64,000 nucleotides of DNA from Candidatus Poribacteria bacterium (GTDB lineage: Bacteria; Poribacteria; WGA-4E; PCPOR2b). Of the stretch, positions 9,713 through 40,310 are shown piece by piece. The notes below the pieces were generated by a model. It was not told the DNA's origin. It ran no database searches and was given only the letters and a program-made list of their open reading frames with translations. Where the stretch lies: positions 4,397,414-4,461,413 of the forward strand of contig OZ252032.1 of the NCBI GenBank assembly GCA_965247655.1, in the 5' to 3' direction. The stretch's first letter is position 1; the number at the start of each line of letters is the position of its first letter. The translations under genes were made by a program, and so were the position numbers.

Positions 9713-10456
9713 CTACGAGTCATCTTCTTCGTCTTTAGCGGCGTATGATTGGCCTGCGAAAGCGGCTCGGACGTCCGCTGCGGTTTTCGCAGTTTTCAGC
9801 GCATTAATCCGTGTCTCTTCTTCCTGCAATAACGCCTTAACGTTAGTTAGAACCGCTTCCGCCTTATCGGCTGGAAACTTGCATGCGCCATTTTCGTCCA
9901 TGTGGACAAGCTCGCCCGGAGAGACATCCATCCCTCCCACCGAGACGGGCACATTGACCGCTTGTACAGCCATATCGCCGTGTCCTGCCGTGACGCCACT
10001 GAGCATATACTGAAACTTCATGGGACGAATTTCATCGATGTCCCGTGAAGGACCATTGGATATGGCACCGACACAGCCGACCGCTTTCATCGCAGCAGTC
10101 ATATTTCCGCCTGCTAGTCCAGCCTTAGCGTGAAGTTCAGGCGGCCACTTTTGCTGGAAGACGAGAACCGTCGGTTTCTTTGATGCGTCGAGTGCGTCAA
10201 TGACATCCATAAAGGTTAAGCGTGAGTAATTCGGGTCTGGCAATCCATACACGCATGTGACCGCATATCCAACGAGCCTGCCTAATTCGGGATACATACA
10301 ACGGATGGATTGGTCGGTATACCAGTTCTCCGTCCAAGGGTTATAAAGCCCAAGACAGAGGGGGTTCTTTGGGTAGGTGGCAACAACGTTGGTGATTGAT
10401 GGTGTATCGTAGTTTCGCAATTCCTCTAAAATTCCTGCTTCCGTTAATTTTGCCAT
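9713..10456 (-). CDS. RraA / HMG-CHA aldolase family protein
   Basis: GYAVT, GGNM, NGPSRDIDEI, VSPGELVHMDENG. Confidence 0.85.
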   Translation of the reverse strand: MAKLTEAGILEELRNYDTPSITNVVATYPKNPLCLGLYNPWTENWYTDQSIRCMYPELGRLVGYAVTCVYGLPDPNYSRLTFMDVIDALDASKKPTVLVFQQKWPPELHAKAGLAGGNMTAAMKAVGCVGAISNGPSRDIDEIRPMKFQYMLSGVTAGHGDMAVQAVNVPVSVGGMDVSPGELVHMDENGACKFPADKAEAVLTNVKALLQEEETRINALKTAKTAADVRAAFAGQSYAAKDEEDDS

Positions 10457-10577
10457 GAGTCACCTCCTTGTAAGTACACTGTCAGGCAAATGAGGATGGA
10501 ACCGACAGTTAGTAGTCCCGCAATTCATTACGCATCGGACGGACGATAAATTGAGTACCAGCACTGAAATCTGCTCG

Positions 10578-32142: not shown

Positions 32143-33132
32143 ATGCAACTTCCCCAACTTACACCGGATCAGATCCAACAACGCTGTACAGAGCAAAGTT
32201 TCACGCGCGGCTTAGACTACTTTCATGCCGGCGCAATTGACAATCCGGTCCTCCACGGCTACACCCTGTCAGCAACATGCGAGGGTACGGATATAGACCC
32301 GTATCGTGTCACTGTAGAATTAATGCCGACAGAGATCGCCTCCACCTACTGTTCGTGTCCATACGACTGGGGAGGAGATTGTAAACATATTGTCGCACTG
32401 CTATTGACCTATGTTCATGAGCCGGACGCCATTCTTTCCCTTGAACCCTTATTCGCCACACTTGAGGCAAAACCTAAGTCAAGCCTACTACAGGTCATTT
32501 CAGAATTGCTCAAACACGCACCCGAACTGGTTCCCATTGCTCAAGCATACTTAGACATTCCCGCCATCCCACTGGAGCCCGGACCGCTTCCACTCGTCAC
32601 AGCTTACCGGGAACAGATTGATAGCATCTTTGAGGATAGCTTTCTCGAACAGCACCACTTCCATCAGGTGATGGTTCAACTCGAAAGTCTGAGGCAGCAG
32701 GCGGAGTCACTCGCACAACTGGGTGAAACGGAACGTGCATTGTCAATTCTTCACGCGTTGATACATCAATCTATCGCGCGCTATTCCGACACGTCCCAGA
32801 CAAGCGAATTGCCATGGTTCGTCGATAAATGCACGCAGGCATTCACACAAATCGTCGTAAACGCGCAAGAGCCAGTTGAAATCCTTGAACACTGCCAAAT
32901 GCTGTTGCGACTGAGTTTTGATGCGGAACAGGTCTTCACACCACTTCTGACATATTTCCTAGAACAGCTCTGTTTGACGCAAGATCTAGCGGACCTAGAA
33001 ACAGCGATTGAACAAGATCTTGATGAGAGTCCAGATCGACAGGCGCATGTTCGGCTCCTGCTTGCATTGGATTTTCAATCCGGCCAGACTGAAGATTACC
33101 TCAGGCTCGTCCAATCCGAAGAGGAGGGATAG
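32143..33132 (+). CDS. SWIM zinc-finger protein, probably 3'-truncated
   Basis: RGLDYF, CSCPYDWGGDCKHIVALLL; frame reads on past the TAG (QLIHALFAG). Confidence 0.8.
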   Translation: MQLPQLTPDQIQQRCTEQSFTRGLDYFHAGAIDNPVLHGYTLSATCEGTDIDPYRVTVELMPTEIASTYCSCPYDWGGDCKHIVALLLTYVHEPDAILSLEPLFATLEAKPKSSLLQVISELLKHAPELVPIAQAYLDIPAIPLEPGPLPLVTAYREQIDSIFEDSFLEQHHFHQVMVQLESLRQQAESLAQLGETERALSILHALIHQSIARYSDTSQTSELPWFVDKCTQAFTQIVVNAQEPVEILEHCQMLLRLSFDAEQVFTPLLTYFLEQLCLTQDLADLETAIEQDLDESPDRQAHVRLLLALDFQSGQTEDYLRLVQSEEEG

Positions 33133-33246: not shown

Positions 33247-35154
33247 TTAATTTTGTAGAGTGATTTGAGTGGATAAAACTTCGATGAGTTCGTTCAAGTG
33301 AACATGTCGAAAAAACTCCGAAAGCCGCTTCTGTTTCGGTTTAATCGGGAGCAAGATAAAATCTGAACGATCTTCTTGGAGGTATTCAAACACCTTGCGA
33401 TACGCTTGGCTTGTGGCATATCCGACAACCAAAGTATAGTGATCACTGTGCTTATCAAGATAGGCTTTGAATCGATCCGCACCCAACTGGATCTGCGCGG
33501 TATTTCTGGGGGACAACTGGAAATCATAGCGCACGACAGGCTCCTCAGATTCAAACTCTTCTGGTACTGGACCATAGAGTCCGGAGAGAGTTATTTTGTG
33601 AATCGCGCGTTGATTGTTCCCAAAGGCATTTTGTAGTTTGGTGTTGATGATAGTATGTGTACGCGAAAGTGAATATGGCTTTTTTCCTGCACAGGGAATT
33701 GCCAAAAGAACCTTTTTATCCTGCGGAGGTTTGTAATCTGCTGGAATGGAAAAGGAATCAGGTGTATAATCCAGTGAAATCGTCGGTTGTTCTTTCTGAA
33801 GAGCTGAATCTGTTTCTTTTGTTGAAAATGCCGGAAAAAGTTCCAATTGATAGGGATTACTCTTGGCCGTACGCCGGTTTTCTGGCGTGGAGATACCAAC
33901 GACGGTCTTTGCCATACGATTAGCAAACTCTTTATTATTCTCCATCAACCAATCCACTGCCCTACGGATGCCTCGCCCTGCTGAAGCATGATGGACTAAC
34001 TCTTCGAGTGCCTCATCGGCTTCAATAGCGTCCTTCATACGAGACAACAGCCCCGCTTCCAACTCGAAATTATGCAAGGCGATCGCCGCATAACATTCGC
34101 TCTTGTATTTTCCGGTCGAAGTCCGCTTATAGCTTACCTCTTCCATTAAAGTGCGTTGCATCTCATCAAGGGAAACCTCCCGGCAGATGCGGCAAGTACA
34201 GGTCAGTTCGTCCAATTCCATCAGTTTCCGTTTTGTTCGTGTTAACGGATCGGAATAGCTGAGTCCACGTGCTGCTTGAATGTAGCTGGTGCTATCAAAG
34301 CTATCGACACCCATGTAAGTCAGTATAGGTGCCAGTTCACCGGAGACACCGAAAGCGTGGATGGGGGTATGGTGCCGCTCTGACGCTGGGATCGCTTTTT
34401 GAACTCCGCAGATTCGCTCAAGTATTGCTGCATCCTGTTTCCCCCGCAATGGGACTAAAGAGCCTACCGCGAGGCCAAATGAGGGCAGCACACCTAAAAG
34501 CCGGTCAAAGACCTGCCTAACATAGTTCTCAATATCCGATTGGGATTGTCCATGACAGCAAACGTATAAAAAGGGTGGTTGTGCTTTGGCTGCAAGTAAT
34601 GTAGCTACGCGACAGGCATTCTCCAGACTTAGGTTCATCCGTTTCTCAGCTTCGGAGCGTTCCAAACCCGGGGGTAGCGGATAATCTAAAGAAGCGATAA
34701 TTTCGCCCCCAAAATCTTCTTGAAGCGCGAAAATGTCATCGGCTTCGGTTTCCTTTTCAATTCCAAATTTCTTTAGGTCTAACCCTGCCTTGTAAAGCAG
34801 CTTAAATCCACCGGAGTCAAGAAATAGTGGGGCATTATAGACACCGTTTACCTCTTGATACCATTCACGCACTGTTTTTTGACGCCACTTGCTTAAATGT
34901 TTTCCCTCCAACGGAAAGTCCAGAAAGTGCAAGACTTGGGATAGCGTCGGGACATCGTGCTTCATCAAATCACGGAGCAGGTACTTCCAAAGACCTCCTC
35001 CGCGTGGAGTTGAACCAGTCAAAAATGAAACCACCGGATACAGTATCGGCGTTGCTAGAGGTGGTAAGACTTCGCCATTGCGTTGCAAACGAAGTTCACC
35101 GGTTCTGCCGCCTTTTCTCTGAACGATTGTATGGTAAGTTGGGATTGTGTTCAT
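33247..35154 (-). CDS. tRNA-guanine transglycosylase-fold protein fused to ArcS/DUF5591-like domain
   Basis: LFLDSGGF, SLDYP, AVGSLVP, IHAFG, GVDSFDS, CTCRIC..ALHN; C-terminal IPCAGKKPYSLSRTH..SGLYGPVPEEFE. Confidence 0.8.
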   Translation of the reverse strand: MNTIPTYHTIVQRKGGRTGELRLQRNGEVLPPLATPILYPVVSFLTGSTPRGGGLWKYLLRDLMKHDVPTLSQVLHFLDFPLEGKHLSKWRQKTVREWYQEVNGVYNAPLFLDSGGFKLLYKAGLDLKKFGIEKETEADDIFALQEDFGGEIIASLDYPLPPGLERSEAEKRMNLSLENACRVATLLAAKAQPPFLYVCCHGQSQSDIENYVRQVFDRLLGVLPSFGLAVGSLVPLRGKQDAAILERICGVQKAIPASERHHTPIHAFGVSGELAPILTYMGVDSFDSTSYIQAARGLSYSDPLTRTKRKLMELDELTCTCRICREVSLDEMQRTLMEEVSYKRTSTGKYKSECYAAIALHNFELEAGLLSRMKDAIEADEALEELVHHASAGRGIRRAVDWLMENNKEFANRMAKTVVGISTPENRRTAKSNPYQLELFPAFSTKETDSALQKEQPTISLDYTPDSFSIPADYKPPQDKKVLLAIPCAGKKPYSLSRTHTIINTKLQNAFGNNQRAIHKITLSGLYGPVPEEFESEEPVVRYDFQLSPRNTAQIQLGADRFKAYLDKHSDHYTLVVGYATSQAYRKVFEYLQEDRSDFILLPIKPKQKRLSEFFRHVHLNELIEVLSTQITLQN

Positions 35155-35266
35155 AGCACGATGTTTTCTCGTTAGTCCATTTACGCATTAACAATGCAGT
35201 GGGATTGAGCGGAAGTTATTCTGCTTATCAAATCTATAGTTCTTTGATGCAATTAGTTTTGCATTC

Positions 35267-35884
35267 TCAAAGGGACGGAAAAATGAATTGTTTGAGAAAA
35301 GTGGTTCTTGCATAAAACGCTCTCGTTGTACTGCCATGTCCCCTACCTTTGGTTCTTGGCTGAATATACACTCCCATTTTTCCAGTTAAAGTAGAAAACC
35401 CCGTTGTACGAATAGTTTCCCTCACCAAGTCATAATCGGCTTTGATTTGATCGTAGATAGCAGAATCATCTAAATCGAAGGTTGTCACAATGTAGAGTAT
35501 CGATTGCTTTTCTTCTCTGCTCTCCCAAATTCTGGCAGCGACGATTAGCTTACTCAATTTAGCTAATAAGTGGCTATTTTCAAAATCAGTACTTTCAACA
35601 TTGTAGGGATCAATCATCGTAATTGACATTGTTTCTTTGACTGTCAAGTCACCACTTCTTAGATATTTCAGAGGAACAACCTTTAGTTCCCACGAACCAA
35701 AATTGGGAGATTGGGAGGAATTAATGGGTAAGTTAAGATGGCACTCAAGAACGTGCCCGGCCCAACCTTTGTTCGGTTTACCTTCTTTGAAAACCGTTAC
35801 TTGGTATTTATCAGCGAAAAGCCGTAGGTCTTTTCCGATAAGCTCGGACAATTTTGAGAGCGCTTCCTGTCTTTCCATATCCAA
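35267..35884 (-). CDS. MutH/Sau3AI/MvaI-like endonuclease, single domain
   Basis: NKGWAGHVLE, SPNFGSWELK, KETMSIT, IKADY, GVYIQPRTKG, RAFYAR. Confidence 0.82.
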   Translation of the reverse strand: MDMERQEALSKLSELIGKDLRLFADKYQVTVFKEGKPNKGWAGHVLECHLNLPINSSQSPNFGSWELKVVPLKYLRSGDLTVKETMSITMIDPYNVESTDFENSHLLAKLSKLIVAARIWESREEKQSILYIVTTFDLDDSAIYDQIKADYDLVRETIRTTGFSTLTGKMGVYIQPRTKGRGHGSTTRAFYARTTFLKQFIFPSL

Positions 35885-35906
35885 TTCCTTTATAACGAAT
35901 ACCTAA

Positions 35907-36908
35907 TTACTTCTCGGCTAGCTCATCAAGCCTCTTTTGAGCAATCTGGTTATACGATTCTTCTTTCTCAATCATCACCCATTTTCGGTTCTGTTTTTCC
36001 GCGACGACCCCGGTCGTCCCAGTCCCTGAGAACGGATCGAGAATCAGATCATCTTCATTGGTTCCCGCCAAAACGAGCCGTTCGACGACTTTGAGCGGCT
36101 TCTGCGAGGGGTGTTTCCCATATCTTCGTTCCGAAGGTTTAATCAGCGGAATTTCCCACATATTTCGCATCTGTTTGTTATTATTCATCGCCTTCATCGT
36201 TTGATAATTGAACGTCCAATTCTTTGCCTTTTTACTTTCATTGTTGACCGTCCATAGGATGAACTCAGTAGACTCGGTAAACATTCGACAGGTAATATTG
36301 GGCTGTGCATTCGGTTTATACCAGACAATTTGAGTGATAATCCGCCGGTCAAATATATTTTGTAGAATAAACCCAAGCGTAAAGATGCTGTGGAACGAGC
36401 CGAAAACAAAGATATTCCCGTTTGGCTTGACAACTCTCAGGACTTCAGTGACCCAATCGAGTGTAAACTGGAAATATTCGTCTTTTGAGAAAATATCCCA
36501 ACCTTCCTGCATGGTAATATGGGAACTAAACGCCCAGCCCAACCCCTTCTTTTGAGATATATTGAACGGTGGATCCGCGATGCAGCAATCGAAGACAGTG
36601 TCCGGCAAAGAAGGCAGAATACTGAGACAATCGCCGCATAAAATCTGCTTGACAGGCAAATTCTCAAATGAAGAATCCGGGAATAAGGTGAGCACGTCTT
36701 CTGATAAAACTGTCTGTATCTGATTTTCTGACGCAACTGTACATTCCGCTTCCGGATCTGAATCGAGCACAGTTTTCGGTTGAAGTGGATGGACTTCCGT
36801 TGTAAGATATTGAATCAATTGGGCTTTATTCAGGGATGAGTATCGTCTTAATCCACGTTTTTTCGCCTCTTTCCTCAGATCTTTGTATCGCATATGATCA
36901 AAGCTCAT
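35907..36908 (-). CDS. Beta-class amino-DNA methyltransferase (DpnA-like) with N-terminal Rho-N/SAP-like domain
   Basis: ADPPFN (motif IV) precedes LDPFSGTGTT (motif I); KPNAQPNITCR, KQMRNMW, GKHPSQKP; N-term KDLRKEAKKRGLRRYSSLNKAQLI. Confidence 0.9.
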   Translation of the reverse strand: MSFDHMRYKDLRKEAKKRGLRRYSSLNKAQLIQYLTTEVHPLQPKTVLDSDPEAECTVASENQIQTVLSEDVLTLFPDSSFENLPVKQILCGDCLSILPSLPDTVFDCCIADPPFNISQKKGLGWAFSSHITMQEGWDIFSKDEYFQFTLDWVTEVLRVVKPNGNIFVFGSFHSIFTLGFILQNIFDRRIITQIVWYKPNAQPNITCRMFTESTEFILWTVNNESKKAKNWTFNYQTMKAMNNNKQMRNMWEIPLIKPSERRYGKHPSQKPLKVVERLVLAGTNEDDLILDPFSGTGTTGVVAEKQNRKWVMIEKEESYNQIAQKRLDELAEK

Positions 36909-39468: not shown

Positions 39469-39885
39469 TCAGAGCGGAGAATCTTGCAAAGCCGGTGTGC
39501 TAGGAACCTCAAGAGAGAACGAAACACATTCAATTTCCCAATCAACCCATGACACTGGTTTCTCCAAAATTCCCTCAAGCCCAAAGATTAAATGTGCTTC
39601 ATTATTATGTGAAAACGGTCCATCTATCACTTTTTGGGCACTTTTGAACTGACCTTGGACGGGATCCCCAATGTATTCAAAAAGGGTTCGCTCAGATCTA
39701 ACCACTCCTTCAAAAATCATCGTACAGTCCTTCAAATATAGGAGCCGATCTGATGAATTTAGCGGATGGTCTGGCATAATACCCAGATTATGAATTGCAA
39801 CTATCAGCCGGTTGCCCTCTATTAATGGAGGCTGAAGGTGGCATTCAAAAAAATCATAATAATCATGATAGCCTGTTATTTTCAT
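39469..39885 (-). CDS. Hypothetical protein (immunity-like)
   Basis: 138 aa, acidic/aromatic, AT-rich; overlaps the upstream gene by ATGA. Confidence 0.55.
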
Positions 39886-40310
39886 CTTATTTTTTTGAAT
39901 ATTGTTGTTCTGACTGCCAAATTCGGAATAGGAATGCTATTAGTCGAGCGAAAAACAAGATGAGAAAACTTTTCAGGTAGTTCTCCAAATCGTTGGATAA
40001 CACATAAACCCATTCGGTCAAGATCTTGTTGAGACGGAAATCTTCCATTTCTGACCCCGAACCGAAAACCGTTGTGTTCAGTAGCATTTATGAAAACTTT
40101 TCCGTCTTTTTTCAGGACACGAGCAGCTTCATCAAGAAATACGGCGCGTGGTCCGCTTGCAATGATTTCATCCACCGAGTTCTCATGAAAAGGCACGCCT
40201 ATGCTAATATCAGTCCTAATACCTTGTGCCGCTATCCTATCTACGTTTATCGCCCCAGGAATTTGTGAAGTCAGCCCACCAAAAAGATCCAAAATTATTA
40301 TATTTGTCAA
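39882..40310 (-). CDS. Minimal class I SAM-methyltransferase-like protein
   Basis: LDLFGG, GAINVD, PFHENSVDEIIA, LDEAARVLKKDGKVFI. Confidence 0.55.
   Translation of the reverse strand: MTNIIILDLFGGLTSQIPGAINVDRIAAQGIRTDISIGVPFHENSVDEIIASGPRAVFLDEAARVLKKDGKVFINATEHNGFRFGVRNGRFPSQQDLDRMGLCVIQRFGELPEKFSHLVFRSTNSIPIPNLAVRTTIFKKIR

Follow-up and report, generated by a model that had tools for sequence, protein, structure and literature searches.

A stretch of 64,000 nucleotides from Candidatus Poribacteria bacterium, a sponge symbiont (GenBank assembly GCA_965247655.1, contig OZ252032.1, positions 4,397,414 to 4,461,413 of the forward strand; hereafter the window), carries at positions 33247-36908 genes for a DNA methyltransferase, a MutH/Sau3AI-family nuclease and a 635-amino-acid (aa) protein that fuses a tRNA-guanine transglycosylase (TGT) domain to the core of archaeosine synthase (ArcS). 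The explanation proposed here, which stands at about even probability, is that this cluster combines a restriction-modification (R-M) pair with an autonomous, single-polypeptide modifier that places a 7-deazaguanine in DNA, the two being inherited together. They are read as two modules because each occurs without the other. The R-M pair is ordinary; what stands out is the fusion family, so far annotated only generically. The case belongs to an established theme, since 7-deazaguanines in DNA are known from Dpd islands (dPreQ0 and dADG, the 7-cyano and 7-amido forms) and from phages (2'-deoxyarchaeosine, dG+, and others).

The fusion protein is encoded on the minus strand at 33247-35154 and consists of a full TGT domain (33976-35154, aa 1-393), a variable linker and the ArcS C1 core (33358-33738, aa 473-599). 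Pfam matches these parts to PF01702 (TGT, 8.9e-14) and PF17884 (DUF5591, 1.8e-15). The TGT domain contains the catalytic residues Asp113 and Asp287, the substrate-pocket residue Asp157 and a zinc site formed by C319, C321, C324 and H361. In alignment with the P. horikoshii enzyme ArcTGT (1IQ8), the DSG and FDS motifs pair, the zinc site is in place and the substrate pocket is of the archaeal type. The C1 domain aligns to AF0587 (2Q07) and carries, at 33655-33696 (aa 487-500), the ArcS signature PC-x3-KPY-x2-S-x2-H, as this motif is defined in the available text of PMC10516641 and PMC5699537. Both active sites are strictly conserved among 78 full-length members from seven taxon groups, including Poribacteria, cyanobacteria, Chloroflexota and haloarchaea, with open reading frames (ORFs) shorter than 550 aa left out. 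Residues D113, D157, D287, C324, H361, C488, K492, P493, Y494 and S497 are kept in all 78, C319 and H500 in 77 of 78, and C321 in 70 of 78.

Only about 40 residues follow the C1 domain, and no PUA or C2 domain was found in the window protein, in its paralogue from the same genome or in any of 10 longer members. The TGT fold, the catalytic Asp pair and the zinc site, together with the missing PUA domain, are the features of a DpdA-type fold. Scores against the NCBIfam equivalog models all fall far below the cut-offs: 90.8 against 440 bits for ArcS (NF040592), 75.4 against 350 for TgtA, 24.4 against 306.75 for Tgt, and 23 bits (3.2e-05) against 200 for DpdA (NF041059). A comparison with the PADLOC catalogue had a divided outcome: the two R-M genes were called, as MTase_II and REase_II, but the fusion was not recognised as DpdA, with 22.2 bits (1.3e-05) confined to aa 166-294.

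The family is widely but unevenly distributed. A profile-free scan of 1.84 billion representatives returned 654 proteins at E<=1e-3 and 104 at E<=1e-30, and a contig scan of genomes gave 80 loci, with 92 relatives among 94 pattern matches. No relatives appeared in 50,697 phage records or in a scan of IMG/VR. The fusion occurs in 27 of 41 related genomes, is absent from some members even within a genus and reaches at most three copies per genome. Two haloarchaeal megaplasmids carry it in similar islands, where it is annotated only as 'tRNA-guanine transglycosylase'.

Its neighbours outside Poribacteria point to DNA as the substrate. Neighbouring ORFs were called crudely (longest ORFs with a greedy overlap filter) and clustered, and one representative per cluster was annotated. 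Across the 36 genome loci outside Poribacteria, a DpdJ-like helicase (PADLOC 1.6e-53) was present in 9, a second large helicase of 1575 aa in 3, a DpdK-like PLD protein in 5, a DpdH-like protein in 2, DUF6884 (YaaA/DpdC-like) in 7 and a GHKL ATPase in 10. QueC accompanied the fusion in 7 of these loci and a YhhQ-type transporter in 5; eight cyanobacterial loci showed a GmrSD_N/NsnA-like gene followed by a HEPN gene, and nine haloarchaeal loci a second, short TGT. In haloarchaea, genes for QueC, QueE and QueD directly adjoin the fusion. Eighty metagenome loci, mostly of haloarchaeal-type kin, gave a similar list: GHKL ATPase (42), short TGT (37), DUF6884 (33), QueD (19), QueE (15), DpdJ-like (14), QueC (12), DpdK-like (10) and YhhQ (6). 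Neither an N6_N4 methyltransferase nor a MutH-like gene was found in any of these 80 loci, many of whose contigs are cut. Taken together, the DpdJ/K/H-like, queC/D/E, YhhQ and GmrSD-like neighbours in Chloroflexota, cyanobacteria and haloarchaea suggest 7-deazaguanine modification of DNA.

The haloarchaeal loci have a recurrent core (L086, L087, L134-L191 and others) made up of DUF6884, a short TGT of about 415 aa, a GHKL ATPase of about 520 aa and the fusion, often joined by queC-queE-queD and DpdJ/K-like genes. A single haloarchaeal island thus holds two different TGT paralogues. Separately, an ESM Atlas cluster automatically named DpdA (about 590 aa, mostly from Planctomycetota) combines DUF6884 and TGT in one protein. 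Here, too, an inserting and a finishing enzyme would be fused, in parallel to TGT with ArcS-C1; the cluster is mentioned as a lead only.

According to the proposed mechanism, the TGT domain would exchange guanine in DNA for preQ0 (7-cyano-7-deazaguanine) supplied by the QueC pathway of the host. The ArcS-C1 domain would then convert the nitrile of preQ0 to a formamidine, giving dG+, or to a lysine-type adduct, and by analogy with ArcS this step would also block the reverse exchange. Insertion and finishing of preQ0 in DNA is the most likely task of the fusion because it lacks tRNA-binding domains, both of its active sites are strictly conserved, its relatives lie in Dpd-like and preQ0-synthesis neighbourhoods, and there are precedents for both steps. 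One precedent is phage nt-1, whose DpdA2 together with a C1-only ArcS2 produces dG+ in plasmid DNA of E. coli (PMC10516641, available text). The other is that ArcS accepts even the free preQ0 nucleoside as a substrate and that transfer of lysine prevents the reverse exchange, as described in the accessible part of PMC11298593. In a symbiont community with many R-M systems, the resulting mark would probably give the chromosome general protection against restriction enzymes, and it would need neither the neighbouring methyltransferase nor the nuclease. According to the available text of PMC5567051, DNA containing dG+ withstands many type II enzymes and remains a substrate for adenine methylation; N6-methyladenine (m6A) and the deazaguanine mark can therefore coexist.

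The genome appears able to supply the precursor. No queC lies in the window, as the earlier note on this DNA had stated, and the genome's only strong match lies at a distance of about 1 Mb. QueC and QueF of this genome exceed their cut-offs, and QueC was found in all 41 related genomes. A canonical tRNA Tgt is encoded elsewhere in the genome (535.8 bits), so that tRNA-Q34 is already served.

A paralogue of the fusion, 615 aa long and 68% identical, lies in the same genome at C1:2884034-2885848. It starts 1 bp after a 128-aa PTPS/QueD-like ORF (L013 8644-10879; C1:2883643-2885878). A gene for a radical-SAM protein resembling lysine-2,3-aminomutase is found 2.4 kb downstream of this paralogue in conserved synteny; lysine and a radical-SAM partner both take part in ArcS chemistry, which makes this gene noteworthy. 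The genome also contains a second TGT-type cluster at C1:5071414-5078683 on the plus strand (L113 7415-14684). Its order is DUF6884 (DpdC/YaaA-like), two small ORFs, an IS4/5 transposase, PIN_4, a 306-aa ORF, a BrxC/D- or TniB-like ATPase, a 399-aa TGT-like protein and an EEP-family nuclease. This cluster has the appearance of one more reduced Dpd-like system, which an insertion sequence (IS) may have disrupted.

Several known systems share parts of this arrangement. Like the Dpd system (DpdA/B/C with DpdD-K, in Salmonella Montevideo and others), the fusion is a TGT-fold enzyme and is predicted to mark host DNA as self with a preQ0-derived base, and its relatives in Chloroflexota, cyanobacteria and haloarchaea are flanked by DpdJ/K/H/C-like genes and queC/D/E. 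It differs in its low DpdA score and in the fused ArcS-C1 domain, which would replace a separate DpdC. Its sole neighbouring nuclease is a type II enzyme of the MutH family that comes with an m6A methyltransferase of its own, and no dpdB-K genes stand beside the window genes in the ORF list, no search aimed at DpdB having been made. With DpdA2 and ArcS2 of phage nt-1 it has in common a DNA transglycosylase, a C1 core with the signature motif and the absence of PUA (PMC10516641, as far as its available text goes), whereas here a single polypeptide is encoded on cellular chromosomes and megaplasmids. The archaeal enzymes ArcS and ArcTGT, which act on tRNA G15, resemble it in the TGT-like N-terminal domain, C1, the signature motif, the archaeal-type pocket and the zinc site. 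Unlike them, the fusion has no C2 or PUA tRNA-binding domain and stays far below their equivalog cut-offs, and it is bacterial and patchy, with relatives in defence-type neighbourhoods. As for type IV CBASS (cyclic-oligonucleotide-based antiphage signalling system), PADLOC gave only DpdA for the fusion and the cluster is bordered by metabolic and SWIM ORFs; no cyclase search was made.

Upstream of the fusion lie the two genes of the R-M module, also on the minus strand. The methyltransferase ORF (35907-36908, 333 aa) encodes what is, by its sequence matches, a beta-class N6-adenine DNA methyltransferase: it matches PF01555 (N6_N4_Mtase, 3.1e-51) and PADLOC MTase_II (1.1e-75), and its closest solved relatives are CcrM (3.6e-47) and H. 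pylori DpnA (1.5e-31). Its catalytic motif reads DPPF, with D112-P113-P114 invariant in 15 sequences (alignment A3), and aa 1-35 form an N-terminal SAP/Rho_N-like helix-hairpin segment. The nuclease ORF (35267-35884, 205 aa, TTG start) encodes a small stand-alone MutH/Sau3AI-family endonuclease, the probable restriction partner. It matches PF02976 MutH (4.4e-13; 49.4 bits against a cut-off of 23) and PADLOC REase_II (1.4e-12), and it aligns to MutH 2AOQ and Sau3AI 4PXG, with E47, E66 and K68 at the positions of the catalytic Glu, Glu and Lys of MutH. Its NCBIfam E-values are 4.8e-19 for Sau3AI and 1.4e-13 for MutH, both far under the equivalog cut-offs (50.5 bits against 243 and 34.8 against 229.9 for MutH; 68.6 against 300 for Sau3AI). 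Database relatives begin two codons later, giving 203 aa, and the protein belongs to a family of 3430 small stand-alone MutH/Sau3AI-like proteins at E<=1e-5. These results bear out the assignments made in the earlier note for all three proteins.

A methyltransferase with a co-oriented nuclease of a known restriction family constitutes a type II R-M pair, and this one is, as far as the genes tell, ordinary and self-sufficient. The same pair stands without any TGT fusion in four genomes of a neighbouring family, one of them with its nuclease interrupted by an IS element; the pair is therefore autonomous. The methyltransferase would protect host sites, probably GATC, from the nuclease. Known members of the MutH/Sau3AI family cut GATC. 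A variant locus, L110, has an N6_N4 methyltransferase, another restriction nuclease and a Dam-family methyltransferase ahead of the fusion, and in genome word counts GATC is depleted (observed/expected 0.64). For these three reasons GATC is the likeliest site. The layout of L110 resembles that of DpnII, which has two methyltransferases, and an N6_N4 methyltransferase beside a MutH/Sau3AI-family nuclease is a feature shared with GATC type II systems of the DpnII/MboI/Sau3AI kind; the window nuclease, at 205 aa, differs from the solved Sau3AI chain of 509 aa. GANTC, suggested by the CcrM-like best match, was set aside as less probable rather than excluded, since it is not depleted (0.91-0.99).

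Over the whole genome, the most extreme depletion is that of GGCC (observed/expected 0.21), followed by AGCT (0.64) and GATC. The depletion may reflect strong restriction pressure on these sites, in the past or now.

The history of the cluster within Poribacteria shows how the two modules relate. The Poribacteria fusions form one clade in the tree (45 rows; Shimodaira-Hasegawa-like approximate likelihood ratio test, SH-aLRT, 99), which splits into three paralogue groups, each with its own conserved synteny. The first, to which the 68%-identical paralogue of the same genome belongs, is preceded by a QueD-like gene, the second lies among unrelated metabolic genes and the third is the clade of the window (19 rows, support 100). 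In this third clade an orthologous methyltransferase stands directly upstream of the fusion in 13 of 19 loci and is missing from the other six. Among the 13 loci that have it, five keep the MutH-like nuclease, two carry another REase_II and six have neither. The replacement family is DUF6996/6997 (3.3e-29), found in L030, L036 and L110; L110 was left out of the tree, as its contig ends within the fusion gene. The fusion itself is intact in all 19. The genes that flank the methyltransferase-fusion block differ, with at least three contexts represented, and in each context a sister locus is cleanly without the cassette, from the end of the upstream gene to 3-17 bp before the start codon of the fusion. 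One cassette-less locus retains a 70-bp nuclease remnant beside an IS-type ORF. The triad was thus present in the ancestor of the clade and eroded in the usual R-M order, nuclease first and then methyltransferase. Because the fusion always stays intact through these losses, it evidently keeps its value without the R-M genes.

Linkage of the methyltransferase to the fusion is limited to this one Poribacteria clade, together with the more basal locus L038 of another genus, in which the stop codon of the methyltransferase and the start codon of the fusion share a 4-bp overlap (ATGA). Both other Poribacteria paralogue clades and the other phyla have the fusion without it, and the 65 loci outside the methyltransferase-bearing Poribacteria group yielded a single methyltransferase, in Kuenenia, 36% identical and 2 kb away. 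The expectation in the earlier note that homologues of the 635-aa protein would be linked to R-M genes is thus borne out in a broader sense, as restriction-type and 7-deazaguanine genes recur in four other phyla, but not for the methyltransferase, whose linkage is clade-specific and was seen in none of the metagenome loci.

These data also bear on an alternative in which methyltransferase, nuclease and fusion are interdependent parts of one integrated system, for example with a deazaguanine at or next to the methylated GATC serving as a second self-mark and the nuclease reading both. The adjacency in 13 loci and in L038, the ATGA overlap and the recurrence of the unit between different flanking genes would all be expected of such a system. 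So would the retention of methyltransferase and TGT where the nuclease has been swapped, and the similar ranking of methyltransferase and fusion identities to the window (Spearman 0.83, n=12). At the cluster itself, no terminator is called in the 112-bp gap ahead of the fusion and RNA-library contigs bridge both junctions. However, vertical co-inheritance by itself would also produce adjacency and co-variation, the R-M pair exists in four genomes without the fusion, and the fusion survives intact in the 8 of 13 loci that have lost the MutH-like gene and in the six that have lost the methyltransferase. The near-absence of the methyltransferase beside the fusion in other lineages points the same way, and interdependence of the three components is considered unlikely. 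The single compact module of the earlier note is accordingly retained only in part: methyltransferase and fusion are co-inherited as a block, but each module occurs alone and the genes decay in sequence.

An equally improbable alternative is that the fusion is an RNA enzyme, a bacterial modifier of tRNA or rRNA of the archaeosine type, placed beside R-M genes by historical accident. ArcS chemistry is native to tRNA, the sources annotate relatives as tRNA ribosyltransferases, and the best family scores are those for TgtA and ArcS. The absence of PUA and C2 domains and the wide shortfall from every equivalog cut-off speak against such a role. So do the company that the family keeps in four other phyla, consisting of helicases, PLD and GmrSD nucleases and DpdC/H/J/K-like genes, its patchy occurrence with absences within a genus, and its presence on haloarchaeal megaplasmids.

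Some of the same observations, with others, count against the preferred reading of an R-M pair joined to a DNA modifier. The TGT domain scores nearer to the archaeal tRNA enzymes than to DpdA, and DNA-modifying activity is a prediction for the family as a whole. The Poribacteria paralogue clades occupy stable syntenic positions among metabolic genes, and a tblastn search with neighbours from other phyla found no DpdJ/K/H-like restriction genes in the genome, as would suit an RNA enzyme. The neighbourhood counts outside Poribacteria come from related genomes and so are not independent. On the side of the chemistry, ArcS of T. kodakarensis requires the radical-SAM partner RaSEA (PMC11298593, available portion), and QueE of this genome is represented only by a weak match of about 1e-9 at C1:6546017-6547681 on the minus strand, inside a 592-aa frame. 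As to the R-M module, the Asp of the D-x(n)-E-x-K motif, catalytic in MutH and Sau3AI, is Asn61 in all eight nuclease orthologues aligned, so that nuclease activity is uncertain, and the GATC specificity is deduced from family membership, L110 and word depletion. The QueE match is split over its frame, and this QueE may hold a large insertion or be fused.

The suggestion in the earlier note that the fusion senses or excises deazaguanine of incoming phage DNA, as a defence effector, is very improbable: TGT base exchange is reversible (PMC11298593, available text) and the GmrSD_N/NsnA-like and HEPN genes that follow the cyanobacterial fusion are of types that attack modified DNA or RNA, but both catalytic domains are strictly conserved, including an ArcS-C1 finishing domain that has no role in excision, the preQ0-synthesis genes and YhhQ importer beside family members argue for insertion, and the known sensors of deazaguanine phage DNA are DNA glycosylases rather than TGT-fold proteins, according to the available text of 10.1101/2025.10.29.685425.

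An extended form of the preferred two-module reading can be put forward only tentatively. Not only phage DNA but also the cellular DNA of Poribacteria, Chloroflexota, cyanobacteria and haloarchaea might carry dG+ or a lysine-type preQ0 adduct made by one fused enzyme, and in one Poribacteria lineage this enzyme might have been recruited to form an operon with an m6A R-M pair of the GATC type. Two chemically unrelated self-marks would then occur on neighbouring bases, within one site or in sites close to each other.

The literature searched, which did not extend to supplements or to the 2016 PNAS Dpd paper, contained no description of the fusion family or of its methyltransferase link. The sole exception was a 'data not shown' remark, in the available text of PMC5567051, that DNA methyltransferases can adjoin tgt genes. 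If the proposed function is correct, deoxyarchaeosine-type marks would extend to bacterial and archaeal chromosomes, and a one-gene tool for producing deazaguanine DNA would become available. It would also define reduced Dpd-like systems, consisting of the fusion with DpdJ/K-like proteins, or of DUF6884, a short TGT, a GHKL ATPase and the fusion, which escape current defence catalogues. Poribacteria would also offer a deazaguanine analogue of the orphan methyltransferase, in a modifier that outlives its decaying R-M neighbours.

Six Poribacteria loci (L035-L037, L039, L040 and L076), including L036 with its otherwise different flanks, have a gene for a 164-aa GNAT acetyltransferase immediately downstream of the fusion, at about 9918-10460 of those loci. 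This pairing recalls the TGT and GNAT modules of the BREX (bacteriophage exclusion)-related BRC systems, for which the available text of PMC12839542 proposes a TGT homologue as a DNA self-marker outside Dpd. Unlike those systems, the window fusion has no HerA/FtsK, PglZ or BrxC-type genes beside it, and a fusion of the BRC TGT to ArcS-C1 is not described in the same available text.

The layout and composition of the cluster agree with the earlier description. The three minus-strand ORFs of the window's ORF list are closely spaced, with a gap of 22 bp between methyltransferase and nuclease (35885-35906) and a spacer of 112 bp between nuclease and fusion (35155-35266). The cluster is more AT-rich than its surroundings, with a GC content of 0.444 against 0.522 and 0.510 in the 10-kb flanks and 0.493 in the genome. 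This difference is real but modest and is mostly carried by the R-M pair (nuclease 0.405, methyltransferase 0.436, fusion 0.468). No direct or inverted repeats flank the cluster as a cassette, only short two-copy matches being present. In the 112-bp spacer no terminator-like or promoter-like site was called on the minus strand, by a scan that yielded no more sites than shuffled sequence.

The fusion and the R-M pair are probably co-transcribed. Parts of all three genes are represented in RNA-library contigs of four studies. Two of these contigs bridge gene junctions, and one contig (X2, record 20) spans 35138-35525, the junction of nuclease and fusion, which is compatible with read-through without proving it. 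DNA carry-over is possible in these libraries, and the contigs give neither level nor strand. At 35922, on the methyltransferase/nuclease border, contigs of two studies part from the window sequence, and others do so near the nuclease/fusion border (35167-35313). These divergence points fit co-existing strains without the nuclease gene.

The cluster has a SWIM-domain ORF on one side (32143-33132, plus strand, 329 aa) and catabolic amidohydrolase and dehydrogenase genes on the other, as had been described. Residues 7-126 of the SWIM ORF are a partial match to the PADLOC candidate PDC-S62, a profile of 566 positions. This ORF adjoins the fusion in only 2 of 16 close loci, and a SWIM protein likewise lies near the fusions on a Haladaptatus plasmid. 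Two small ORFs of 138 and 142 aa, with no function assigned, lie between the catabolic genes at 39469-40310 on the minus strand. They are shared only with the closest relative, L033, and the patch that holds them is sharply AT-rich (GC 0.388 at 39500-39999), which marks a second small insertion in the window.

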